8,266 bases of DNA, from IMG/VR virus record IMGVR_UViG_2619619132_000010; one strand, written 5' to 3'. This document shows positions 5,391 through 8,266 of this stretch, piece by piece. This DNA comes from a virus (taxonomy: Duplodnaviria > Heunggongvirae > Uroviricota > Caudoviricetes). The position numbers and the translations under genes are program-made. The notes under the pieces are model-generated. The model was not told the origin of the DNA. It searched no databases and saw only the letters and a list, made by a program, of their open reading frames with translations. Every line of letters starts with the position of its first letter. Position 1 is the stretch's first letter.

Positions 5391-5687
5391 TCAGTCATTA
5401 CTGATAGCGCCATAACGAGAGCGATAATTACGCAGGCGCGGGTCGATATATTCAGGGAAGTGGGTATATGTGGCTTTGCGGAATGGTCGGATTGATGTCT
5501 GGTAAATTCGCTCGCGTTCTTCTTTCTCTGCAAGCCATATACAGTGGCGAAATTCCTTTTCCTCTTTCGTTTCCTGCGGTAGCGACATTATCCGATCGTA
5601 GTTTTTTCTGAATTTATCCAGCACCTCCGATACGGAATTGCCGGAACAGCGGCGCGCGTCATCCGCACCATACAGAGGCGCTGGCAT
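5391..5687 (-). CDS. Hypothetical 98-aa protein (possible Abc-like accessory protein by position)
   Basis: ATG at 5687 with AAGGA 7 nt upstream; translation MPAPLYGADDARRCSGNSVSEVLDKFRKNYDRIMSLPQETKEEKEF.... Lies 23 nt downstream of the ssb-like stop. Confidence 0.6.
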   Translation of the reverse strand: MPAPLYGADDARRCSGNSVSEVLDKFRKNYDRIMSLPQETKEEKEFRHCIWLAEKEERERIYQTSIRPFRKATYTHFPEYIDPRLRNYRSRYGAISND

Positions 5688-5710: not shown

Positions 5711-6094
5711 CTAGAAGGGAATTGAATCGTCGTATTCAGGATGATTTTGATGATTGCTACTTTGTTGCTGTTGGCTGTTTCCTGAAGTTGCAAATCCAAT
5801 CTTTGCATTCAGTAATTCAAGAGTGATTGATTGACCATTTTGCCCCTGATAAACATCAACCATGATGTTTTCTCCGGTAATTTCTACAATGCCACCTTCA
5901 ACAAGAACACTACGGTAGTAATCCGCTTGCGCTCCCGGCTTGGCAAATACAACGGCGCTGTAGTTTGTCCATTCTTTCTTTTTTGTCTGGCGATCGTAAT
6001 ACTGAACGCCAGCACGGATGTTGAATCCGATATTTTCCCCGGCCTGAAACTCTCTTGCGGGCTTGTTTAGTCTTACAGTAATCGAATGTGCCAT
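5711..6094 (-). CDS. ssb: Short phage single-stranded DNA-binding protein (SSB-like, 127 aa)
   Basis: C-terminal acidic tail ...EYDDSIPF matches the SSB-family DDDIPF-type tail, preceded by a Q/S/N-rich linker and an N-terminal domain of OB-fold size. Start ATG overlaps the erf stop (TAATG). Confidence 0.72.
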   Translation of the reverse strand: MAHSITVRLNKPAREFQAGENIGFNIRAGVQYYDRQTKKKEWTNYSAVVFAKPGAQADYYRSVLVEGGIVEITGENIMVDVYQGQNGQSITLELLNAKIGFATSGNSQQQQSSNHQNHPEYDDSIPF

Positions 6095-6699
6095 TAAGCA
6101 GCAGCTCCTTCTAATTCGTCTCGTCTGATGTTGTAAACGTCCTGCGCTTTGTGCTGCTCAGGTGTGCCTTCGAGCATCTTCCACGCTTTGGCGAACGCCT
6201 GTTTAAGCTCTTCTACGGTGTTTTTCTGCATTGCTGCGTCAGTGAATGCTTTTAGAACCTGTTCAGGTGTAGGTGATGGTTTTGATTGCTTTGCTGCTGC
6301 GTTCTGCTGATGTTTATGCTCGTCTGTATCTGCATCTTTCGCATCATCAATGCCGAACAAACCATTGAGGCAATACTTGCGTGCATAAGAGCTTGTAGCT
6401 CCCGTAACTTGTGCAGAATCCATTCCTTTCTTGCTTTCTTCCTCTCGTGCAAGAGCGGTTGCCGTATGGCTGTTTTCGCCATCGGTAATAGTTGCCGTGG
6501 CTTTCACGTAATACCGATCACCAATCAACACAACTTCATCGCTGATTGATAAAAACAGACCATTCAGTAACGGCTTAACGCCTTCAAGAATATCTTCGCA
6601 GCTTCTGTATTTATATTTACCGAATGAGTTGTACTGATTCTTTGGCGCGTTCAGATTCTCCTGAATAGCTGCCAGTCTTGCGTAAAATTCTTTGCTCAT
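6094..6699 (-). CDS. erf: Erf-family single-strand annealing recombinase (P22 Erf-like, 201 aa)
   Basis: MSKEFYARLAAIQENLNAPKNQYNSFGKYKYRSCEDILEGVKPLLNGLFLSISDEVVLIGDRYYVKATATITDGENSH... recognised as close to phage P22 Erf. Start taken as ATG at 6699; the track's 6729 start is a TTG extension. Confidence 0.9.
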   Translation of the reverse strand: MSKEFYARLAAIQENLNAPKNQYNSFGKYKYRSCEDILEGVKPLLNGLFLSISDEVVLIGDRYYVKATATITDGENSHTATALAREEESKKGMDSAQVTGATSSYARKYCLNGLFGIDDAKDADTDEHKHQQNAAAKQSKPSPTPEQVLKAFTDAAMQKNTVEELKQAFAKAWKMLEGTPEQHKAQDVYNIRRDELEGAAA

Positions 6700-6709
6700 A
6701 TGATTGTTC

Positions 6710-6880
6710 TCAGAATGGACACGGCCCAAGGAAATAACGCTGATTTAATACTTCGACTCGGGACAAATTAAGGCATACCCGCATTCCTTCACGATCTCCA
6801 TTCTGGCGATACATTAACGCCTGCTGCGTGTACATGCGTCTCTGTAACTTGCTCTCCTTCACTGTGGTTGCAAGTGACAT
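6710..6880 (-). CDS. Hypothetical 56-aa ORF just upstream of erf (arf-position candidate); overlaps the next ORF in another frame
   Basis: ATG at 6880 preceded by GGAG with 6-nt spacing; translation MSLATTVKESKLQRRMYTQQALMYRQNGDREGMRVCLNLSRVEVLNQRYFLGPCPF; TGA at 6712-6710, 10 nt before the erf ATG. Not in the track. Confidence 0.4.
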   Translation of the reverse strand: MSLATTVKESKLQRRMYTQQALMYRQNGDREGMRVCLNLSRVEVLNQRYFLGPCPF

Positions 6881-6959
6881 GAATATCTCCTTCGTTACCG
6901 ATTAATTCTTTCATCTGACGAATGAATTCTTCGTCTGACCAGTTATCTGTAAAACTCAT
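6789..6959 (-). CDS. Hypothetical 56-aa acidic protein, translationally coupled to the kil-like gene
   Basis: ATG at 6959 overlaps the kil-like stop (ATGA); translation MSFTDNWSDEEFIRQMKELIGNEGDIHVTCNHSEGEQVTETHVHAAGVNVSPEWRS. The track shows it with a GTG-extended start at 6974. Confidence 0.45.
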   Translation of the reverse strand: MSFTDNWSDEEFIRQMKELIGNEGDIHVTCNHSEGEQVTETHVHAAGVNVSPEWRS

Positions 6960-7108
6960 TTCCTGCGATACCACGGAAGGTTGATAGCTGATTTCATCGC
7001 TTTATTTGCTTCAAGCCACATTTTTGAATCACCAATAAATCTGGCTATTACTGCTTTGTTCTGTGCAGCACGAAGCATCTGGTGATTGATGGCTATTTCA
7101 TTGCGCAT
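6956..7108 (-). CDS. kil: Kil-like small protein (50 aa), candidate host cell-division (FtsZ) inhibitor
   Basis: Translation MRNEIAINHQMLRAAQNKAVIARFIGDSKMWLEANKAMKSAINLPWYRRK. The ARFIGDSKMW segment resembles recalled lambda Kil. GAGG 7 nt upstream of the ATG; the start lies inside the 3' end of the cIII-like gene, as for lambda cIII/kil. Confidence 0.55.
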   Translation of the reverse strand: MRNEIAINHQMLRAAQNKAVIARFIGDSKMWLEANKAMKSAINLPWYRRK

Positions 7109-7224
7109 AATAAGACCTCAACTCTTTTCCATCCGTCACGTAATTTACGGGTGATTCGTTCAAGTAAAGATTCATTTAATTGGAAGGCACCCATGCGAGC
7201 GCCTCCCGCGATTGCGTAAATCAT
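7093..7224 (-). CDS. cIII: CIII-like protein (43 aa), candidate FtsH-inhibiting regulator
   Basis: Translation MIYAIAGGARMGAFQLNESLLERITRKLRDGWKRVEVLLCAMK. The core ESLLERITRKLRDGWKR matches the recalled lambda CIII central helix. AAGGA 7 nt upstream of the ATG. Not in the track. Confidence 0.7.
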   Translation of the reverse strand: MIYAIAGGARMGAFQLNESLLERITRKLRDGWKRVEVLLCAMK

Positions 7225-7248
7225 GGGTGGTTCCTTATGTTGGTTTTA

Positions 7249-8142
7249 TTAGTAGGTTATTTTTGTTGCGAATACTTCGCCTTTTACGATGGCTGTTATG
7301 ATATTTTTAGCAACATCTTCTGATGCACCAACCTTGATAAGGTCAGCAAGTATTTTGTTATTTACTTCTTTCCGGTGAGCTTTATCCTTTGCTCTACGCT
7401 CTTCTTCGTCCTTGATTCTTTTTTCTTCTGCTATTCTGGCTTGCTCTTTTGCTTCAGCTTCGCGCCGGATTCGTTCAGCCTCCTCCTGTGCTTTTCGGCG
7501 TTCTGCTTCAATTGCCGCCTGCTTTTCTCTTTCAGCTCGTTCTGCTGCCTCTTTTGCTTCGCGCTGTGCTCGTTGCTCGGCTTCAATGCGTTCACGCTCT
7601 GCACGTTCCGCTGCGGCCTTAGCTTCTGCTTCTCGCCTTGCTGCTGCTTCAATTTCGGCTTTTGCCTTTGCTTCGGCTTCTGCTCTGGCTTTCTCTTCAG
7701 CTTCTCTTTTTAAGCGTTCTTCATGCTCTCGCTTTTCCTGCTCCGCTTTGAGTCTTGCCTCTTCTCTTTTGCGGTCAAATTCGCGATCCATCAAAATCGC
7801 TATTTCATGGTCAGACTCAATTTGCTTTGCGAGAGCTTCAGCTGCTGCCTTAGCTTCTTCTTCGGCTTTAATCCGTGCCTGTTCCTCCTCATAATCAGTA
7901 AGAGGCTGGCGTGCCTTGGCTTTCAGTTCATCAAGGCGATCGCGCACTGTCTTGCGGTTGGCATCAATTAGCTTTGGAATTTCCTTCAGTTCAGCAACAA
8001 GGTCTTTGCCAAGACCATCGAGATATGTTTTCGTCTGCGCAACTTTATACGCCAGAGAAGCGATCTGAACCGCCCCGGGTTTCCTGGAGAGTGTTTTATC
8101 TGTGAACTCAGGCTGCCAGATCATCGTTTCCGATGGAAGCAT
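7249..8142 (-). CDS. Large charged low-complexity protein (E/A/K/R-rich predicted long helix), function unknown; 5' end uncertain
   Basis: Long minus-strand ORF with stop at 7251-7249. First in-frame ATGs are at 8142 and 8124, neither with a convincing SD. The central 500 nt or so encodes EAEAKAKAE / ERAERER-type repeats. Its 5' region overlaps the transposase C-terminus in another frame. Confidence 0.55.
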   Translation of the reverse strand: MLPSETMIWQPEFTDKTLSRKPGAVQIASLAYKVAQTKTYLDGLGKDLVAELKEIPKLIDANRKTVRDRLDELKAKARQPLTDYEEEQARIKAEEEAKAAAEALAKQIESDHEIAILMDREFDRKREEARLKAEQEKREHEERLKREAEEKARAEAEAKAKAEIEAAARREAEAKAAAERAERERIEAEQRAQREAKEAAERAEREKQAAIEAERRKAQEEAERIRREAEAKEQARIAEEKRIKDEEERRAKDKAHRKEVNNKILADLIKVGASEDVAKNIITAIVKGEVFATKITY

Positions 8143-8266
8143 AATAAGCTTTTTCTGCTTCTGCCGGAGGAGTATGGCCCAGCCTTTCCAGCAATCGTCG
8201 ATTGTTATACCAGTCCACCCACGTGAGTGTGGCCAGTTCCACTTCTGCACGGTTTTTCCAGCTCTT
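8108..8266 (-). mobile_element. C-terminal end of a DDE (rve-type) transposase, IS3-family-like; partial, runs off the window
   Basis: Minus-strand frame reads ...KSWKNRAEVELATLTWVDWYNNRRLLERLGHTPPAEAEKAYYASIGNDDLAA then TGA at 8110-8108. The W..WYN.RR...LG..P.E motif is typical of the C-terminal part of integrase-core transposases. Confidence 0.55.

Follow-up and report, generated by a model that had tools for sequence, protein, structure and literature searches.

The window, by which is meant the whole stretch of 8,266 nucleotides that was analysed (IMG/VR record IMGVR_UViG_2619619132_000010), belongs to a lambdoid prophage of Escherichia coli adjoining ybhC, and carries the early-left (pL) operon on its minus strand in the order cIII, kil, ORF A, ORF B, erf, SSB, and abc2. 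The upstream pL gene is a cIII homologue (7093..7224, minus strand; Pfam Lambda_CIII, 4e-15; phrog_550), and it is followed by a kil homologue (6956..7108, minus strand; Pfam Lambda_Kil, 1.7e-20) whose TGA stop codon occupies positions 6958-6956. Downstream of the two small frames considered here lies erf (6094..6699, minus strand, with its ATG at 6699), which encodes an Erf-family single-strand annealing protein (Pfam ERF, 2.1e-44) with an N-terminus, MSKEFYARL, that agrees with that of P22 erf. Next comes the gene for a phage SSB of 127 aa with a canonical SSB tip, EYDDSIPF, at its C-terminus (5711..6094, minus strand; phrog_44, 2.1e-27; no Pfam match), and the recombination module ends with the anti-RecBCD gene abc2 (5391..5687, minus strand; Pfam Anti-RecBCD_p2, 4.1e-61). 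A short ORF (...WVDWYNNRRLLERLGHTPPAEAEKAYYA) that closes the window on the right (8108-8266, minus strand) resembles the C-terminus of an IS3-family transposase. Immediately downstream of it is a 333-aa coiled-coil gene, the first ~40 residues of which appear unrelated to its homologues, and an IS insertion at 8108-8266 may have truncated the early-left region of the prophage.

The interval between kil and erf is occupied by two frames of 56 aa, both on the minus strand. ORF A extends from 6959 to 6789, with its ATG at 6959-6957 and its stop codon at 6791-6789, and its start overlaps the kil stop as ATGA. ORF B (6710..6880) begins at its own ATG at 6880, is preceded by an AAGGAG Shine-Dalgarno sequence (6887..6892, as read in the sequence) at a spacing of 6 nt, and terminates at 6712-6710, 10 nt short of the erf ATG. 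This Shine-Dalgarno sequence lies inside codons 23-25 of ORF A, and GAAGGAG is retained in the homologue from an Enterobacter phage. The two ORFs share 92 nt of the same strand (6880-6789) in different frames, B being +1 relative to A and A being B+2. An earlier note, made from the sequence alone, had described the ATGA junction, the spacing of the ORF B start and stop, and the 92-nt overlap, and all three descriptions hold. ORF A can accordingly be divided into a conserved N-terminal part comprising codons 1-26/27 (MSFTDNWSDEEFIRQMKELIGNEGDIH; 6881..6959) and an unconstrained tail that coincides with the overlap (6789..6880). A scan of positions 6000-7400 for promoters and terminators returned nothing above chance, and RNA folding of 6965-6780 gave no unusual structure and no hairpin over the ORF B Shine-Dalgarno sequence (z = -1.4). 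The window contains 93 ORFs of at least 30 aa, so that open frames of 56 codons are at chance level; gene status at this locus must therefore rest on comparative data.

Such data are plentiful for the interval as a whole. A stretch of 481 bases around the pair recurs at 94-97% identity in HK97, HK022, CUS-3, Sf6, Sf101, mEp phages, and Stx phages, as well as in 1115 of 5426 complete genomes of E. coli. Both ORFs are already catalogued as genes of lambdoid phages, including Sf6 (gp29/gp30), CUS-3 (ECRS218_0052/0053), HK97 (gp42/gp42.1), HK022, and others. Three RefSeq/PGAP records of E. coli (L003, L180, and L181) annotate ORF A and omit ORF B, and other records annotate neither ORF or both. 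The PHROG label ‘recombinase’ is attached to both families, although no supporting basis for it was found, and Pfam, NCBIfam, and PADLOC contain no match for either ORF. Homology to other loci begins exactly at the ATG of ORF A and ends just after the stop codon of ORF B, and the neighbours beyond these points alternate, between kil and a cIII-like gene on the upstream side and between erf and sak4 on the downstream side. The position of these junctions, together with the exchange of neighbours, indicates that ORF A and ORF B constitute one mosaic unit.

ORF B can be assigned to a family over its entire length. It matches phrog_1723 across 56 of 56 residues (hmmscan, 4e-35), the same model is matched by the HkaM protein of phage HK620 (NP_112046; 3.6e-33), and comparison of the ORF B profile with HkaM by hhalign gives a probability of 96.3% (E = 1.8e-9). 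Members of the HkaM family are 56-62 aa in length and all representatives end in Pro-Phe, often with an acidic residue three to four positions before the end; the C-terminus of ORF B reads YFLGPCPF. When 1.84 billion representative proteins were searched with the profile, only approximately 16 genuine clusters emerged, of 56-60 aa, all ending in (Y/F)FLGxxPF. ORF B homologues (56-62 aa) are found in five sequence contexts that have no ORF A. In Salmonella phage S9-5, the gene follows an unrelated gene after a 75-nt spacer, in Erwinia phage vB_EhrS_59 it starts within an ATGA shared with an unrelated gene of 49 aa, and in a Kluyvera prophage it stands directly after a coiled-coil gene; the remaining contexts are those of phage S.Kent and of HK620, where the gene is hkaM itself. 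The family is located directly upstream of the gene for Erf or a Sak4-type ATPase, a position found in loci L005, L006, L094, L095, and L099, with the exception of S9-5, in which an HNH endonuclease gene lies before the recombinase gene. ORF B ends 7-10 nt before the recombinase gene, and its termination there probably feeds ribosomes to erf.

Selection on ORF B is evident in every comparison made. Among 15 pairs drawn from six lineages, frame B showed pN/pS values of 0.20-0.60 in all 15 (Fisher p from 1e-3 to 1e-14), and in the same pairs the two other frames over ORF B gave values of 0.84-2.9. The AlphaFold2 model (pLDDT 91.6) is a helical hairpin, with helices at residues 7-27 and 30-50 and a free C-terminal tail, and the protein is basic, with nine Lys/Arg against four Asp/Glu and a net charge of about +5. 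A Foldseek search of the PDB with this model recovered generic helical hairpins only (E > 1), and comparison of the ORF B profile with the sequences of solved structures gave only insignificant matches to Cas1 (E ~0.09). Hutinet et al. (2018; PMC5928155) described HkaM as an orphan of unknown function and could detect no effect of it on recombineering. In the recombineering assay for HK620, the yield obtained with sak4 and ssb equalled that of the whole module including hkaM (PMC5928155), and hence there is no known recombination phenotype for the ORF B family. Apart from Hutinet et al. (2018), a search of the literature on ‘gp42.1’/HK97 and on HkaM brought up only a survey of the recombination modules of lambdoid phages (Genome Research, 2025). 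Judged by its conservation, ORF B is a real, autonomous, and strongly constrained gene of the HkaM family.

The case for ORF A is more restricted. It matches phrog_2123 (hmmscan, 4e-40), and across three lineages its codons 2-20 gave frame A pN/pS values of 0.54 (not significant), 0.19 (p = 1e-6), and 0.18 (p = 5e-4), the other frames giving values of at least 0.72. The constrained stretch is short, at approximately 20-27 codons, and only two of the three pairs reach significance. The overlapping architecture of A and B persists in Enterobacter phage vB_Ecl_MII_001 and a Pseudocitrobacter prophage (loci L005 and L094), at a divergence that brings synonymous sites close to saturation. The start of ORF A overlaps the stop codon of the gene above it, as ATGA or GTGA, in three unrelated upstream contexts, in which that gene is kil, a cIII-like gene of 56 aa, or a gene of 116 aa (the GTGA case); translation of ORF A is therefore probably coupled to that of the upstream gene. 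The predicted structure (AlphaFold2, pLDDT 57 overall) consists of a single helix at residues 9-20 (pLDDT ~75) followed by disorder (pLDDT <57). The product is strongly acidic, with 11 Asp/Glu against three Lys/Arg, and the opposite charges of ORF A and ORF B are due in part to one purine-rich stretch that is read in two frames. In two ORF A variants of the protein collection (P0038 and P0045), the segment EFIRQMK within the conserved helix has been duplicated in tandem once or twice, as a 21-nt repeat.

Some of these features would also be expected if ORF A were a non-functional by-product, with its 5′ conservation attributable to a recombination joint and to the ribosome-binding site of ORF B, and with ORF B as the only real gene of the pair. 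Over its first 50 nt (6910-6959), ORF A is 100% identical to phage HK140 (L097, 901-950), after which the sequences are unrelated, as at a module boundary; this identity could be due to a recombination joint and not to protein function. The collapse of identity falls at codon 17 and thus marks a mosaic joint within coding sequence; the HK140 counterpart is an acidic ORF of 35 aa in a RecT-type module. At the other end of the conserved part, the last few A-only codons that are conserved coincide with the Shine-Dalgarno sequence of ORF B. Close relatives display 16 nonsynonymous against six synonymous variants in the N-terminus, a pN/pS of about 0.5 that denotes mild constraint, and one sequence carries a nonsense codon at codon 8. 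The low confidence of the structural model, and the finding that two ORF B homologues without ORF A have 28-37 open codons in the A frame, also sit comfortably with a by-product. Against this, pS over codons 2-20 reaches 0.67-0.97 where pN is 0.12-0.18, with p values of 1e-6 and 5e-4 and in frame A only, and the start-stop overlap recurs in three unrelated contexts. Furthermore, the N-terminal peptide MSFTDNWSDEEFIRQM also heads acidic ORFs of 31-35 aa in HK140-type phages and resembles P22 Arf. The by-product reading is consequently regarded as rather unlikely, and ORF A is probably a real gene in part, with constraint confined to its N-terminus.

The resemblance to Arf is itself slight. The WSDEEFI motif of ORF A is faintly like P22 Arf (MQHEFSDEEFIALI...). 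Against the Arf family phrog_2445, hmmscan gave 0.042 for the ORF of the window and 8.4e-4 for its Pseudocitrobacter homologue, in both cases over residues 4-27 only, and hhalign produced a weak match of 21 columns only (probability 36%, E = 3.8e-4). A passage in PMC12315714, citing Poteete et al. (1991), states that P22 Arf aids recombination and is non-essential. The earlier note had placed the pair in the ‘arf slot’. The term is reasonable for ORF A in view of its weak N-terminal resemblance to Arf; the gene that actually abuts erf is ORF B, a homologue of HkaM unrelated to Arf.

Within the 92-nt overlap, where each nucleotide belongs to two codons, constraint was found in one frame. In comparison with the Enterobacter phage, pN/pS across the overlap is 0.23 in frame B and 1.76 in frame A, and between two E. 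coli haplotypes (that of the window and that of the CUS-3 type) it is 0.20 in frame B and 7.3 in frame A. These haplotypes differ at about ten positions within 40 nt, five of the differences being synonymous in B, and as a result of the changes the tail of ORF A is rewritten and its stop codon moved. In the 15 pairs used for ORF B, constraint in frame B+2, which is the A frame, was detected in none. Polymorphisms in the overlap, taken from two sets, comprise 13 that are silent in B and change A and one of the reverse kind, and this 13:1 asymmetry holds even in the polymorphism set picked by similarity to ORF A. Depending on the allele, ORF A is 52, 53, 54, or 56 aa long, with its stop codon shifted by four codons between E. 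coli haplotypes; the ~25-31 codons that extend into ORF B are predicted to be disordered, and the tails from three lineages cannot be aligned.

The sampling behind such counts deserves attention. Each locus set consisted of the best 80 of more than 450 IMG/VR loci, and a scan of genome contigs contributed eight loci. Of the 69 unique sequences in the set picked by similarity to ORF B, 67 have an ORF A of at least 52 aa and 68 an ORF B of 56 aa; in the set picked by similarity to ORF A, both ORFs were intact in all 36 unique sequences. Among the best 80 loci of the former set, ORF A appeared far more variable than ORF B (31 against seven distinct proteins), a contrast that is largely an ascertainment bias and was rejected as evidence, the reciprocal set picked by ORF A similarity containing nine distinct A proteins and eight distinct B proteins. 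Since selecting loci by ORF B similarity had biased these counts, reliance was placed on pN/pS between divergent lineages and on the classification of variants by frame.

On another reading, the pair is genuinely overprinted, and the tail of ORF A has a function of its own and is selected along with ORF B. The A frame does remain open for 27-31 codons into ORF B in all three divergent ORF A lineages (52-56 aa), the tail is acidic in every lineage, and among four ORF B homologues without an ORF A start the first A-frame stop falls at codons 5 and 8 in two. The other two nevertheless keep the frame open, with stops at codons 29 and 38. The earlier note had proposed that routine interruption of one frame in homologous loci would count against the pair, and what was found is divided: the A frame is broken early in half of the loci that lack its start and is nearly always open where the start is present. 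It had also called for synonymous-site constraint to be compared in both frames, and here the outcome is one-sided, with purifying selection in frame B (0.20-0.23) and values in frame A that run from about 1.8 to 7.3. Together with the absence of constraint in frame B+2 in any of the 15 pairs, the unalignable and predicted disordered tails, and the mobile stop codon, this makes functional dual coding quite improbable. Both frames are open in homologues and only frame B is constrained in the overlap, and the pair is thus not overprinted in the sense of dual constraint. Of the two alternatives that had been offered, that one ORF is spurious or that the pair is truly overprinted, neither is exact, since both ORFs have comparative support as genes; as far as substitution patterns can tell, the overlap is asymmetric, with a passenger tail on ORF A and no dual coding.

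A number of database entries join the two frames. The HK97 record annotates Gp42.1 as an A-B fusion of 83 aa, which exists only by virtue of two extra bases, and none of ~100 other unique sequences has them. At the place equivalent to ~6832-6822 of the window, HK97 (L001, AF069529; 1795-1810) reads CATGTCACACGCGAG as against CATGT-ACACGC-AG; the two additional bases are probably an old sequencing error or a mutation of the laboratory strain. The protein collection includes many further A-B fusions of 81-82 aa (P0003, P0006, P0019-P0021, P0023, P0028, and P0030), with junctions scattered over residues ~26, 29, 36, 43, 47, 49, and 51. One of these, P0020, is present on 36 E. coli contigs, which implies that one or more frameshifted lineages survive in nature, and the frameshifts in the HK97 record and in this lineage mean that separate products of A and B are not indispensable. 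A programmed +1 ribosomal frameshift that would yield a single product of ~82 aa from the two ORFs, as Gp42.1 and the 82-aa entries might lead one to suppose, is most unlikely: the HK97 fusion hangs on its two private bases, the scattered junctions are those expected from random indels or sequencing errors and not those of a conserved shift site with a fixed junction, the passage from A to B requires a shift of +1 or -2, for which the sequence offers neither a slippery nor a prfB-like site, the codons before the ORF A stop (UCG UGA or CCA UAA) differ between haplotypes and are unable to re-pair in +1, and ORF B possesses its own strong Shine-Dalgarno sequence and stands alone in other phages.

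The interpretation that we consider likely is that the kil-erf interval contains two real small genes of the pL recombination module that overlap asymmetrically. Both would be translated, each by a different route. Ribosomes completing kil, or whichever gene lies upstream, would restart at ORF A through the stop-start overlap and synthesize a short acidic peptide with an Arf-like WSDEEFI helix, the functional part of which would be the first 20-27 residues. They would then run on over the Shine-Dalgarno sequence and start codon of ORF B in the other frame for ~25-31 codons, adding a disordered tail whose sequence would be dictated by ORF B and would not itself be under selection. ORF B would be initiated independently at its own strong ribosome-binding site, and its termination beside the erf start could deliver ribosomes to erf. 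The two products would be accessory to the Erf or Sak4 recombinase.

As to what ORF B might do, our preferred guess is that its C-terminal Pro-Phe docks on a partner in the manner of an SSB C-terminal tip; the tip of the HK620 SSB, NDYPPF, is known to bind Sak4 (PMC5928155). A more elaborate proposal, which is speculative and to which we would attach only a small chance, is that the HkaM family consists of SSB-tip mimics, in which the hairpin presents FLGxxPF-COOH to a pocket on Erf, Sak4, or the host proteins that are clients of SSB, and thereby tunes or hijacks recombinase loading. The acidic, Arf-like peptide of ORF A could in turn be a partner or an antagonist of ORF B. If it were true, mimicry of the SSB tip would supply the first molecular handle on the ‘arf slot’, which has been unexplained since 1991.

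The main value of these results is for annotation and the planning of experiments, given that ORF B is the ORF omitted from the three RefSeq records of E. coli despite evolutionary support far stronger than that for ORF A. The link between ORF B and HkaM reveals one conserved family that is positioned directly before the recombinase gene across modules of the Erf and Sak4 types, and its invariant C-terminal Pro-Phe offers a concrete lead on the accessory genes of phage recombination modules. The locus also serves as a cautionary case, in that two overlapping frames that are open, annotated, and conserved in appearance need not both be constrained.

Several known systems can be set beside this pair. 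The annotated homologues in Sf6, CUS-3, HK022, mEp phages, and HK97 share 88-98% protein identity with the ORFs of the window and have the same overlapping pair; they differ in that most carry the 52-aa allele of ORF A, the window having the rarer 56-aa allele, and in that the HK97 record alone has the two bases that fuse both frames. HkaM of HK620 resembles ORF B in its small size (62 aa, compared with 56 aa), in its ...FL(G/S)...PF ending, and in its location after kil in the pL operon and immediately upstream of a recombinase gene. However, the two proteins are only ~33% identical, HkaM precedes the RecA-like Sak4 whereas ORF B here precedes Erf, and the start of hkaM itself overlaps kil as ATGA with no ORF A above it. 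P22 Arf (47 aa) is comparable to ORF A in that both are small and acidic, follow kil, and bear an N-terminal (F/W)SDEEFI, but the similarity is limited to ~21 residues and the C-terminal half of ORF A is unrelated. The genetic position also differs, as the P22 arf stop overlaps the erf start, a direct coupling to erf from which ORF A is cut off by the intervening ORF B. Finally, ORF B and its relatives share the Pro-Phe-COOH ending of SSB C-terminal tips, such as DDDIPF in E. coli, NDYPPF in HK620, and DDSIPF in the SSB of this very module; the resemblance is one of a short motif, in a protein that is basic and has neither the acidic run nor the OB fold of an SSB.
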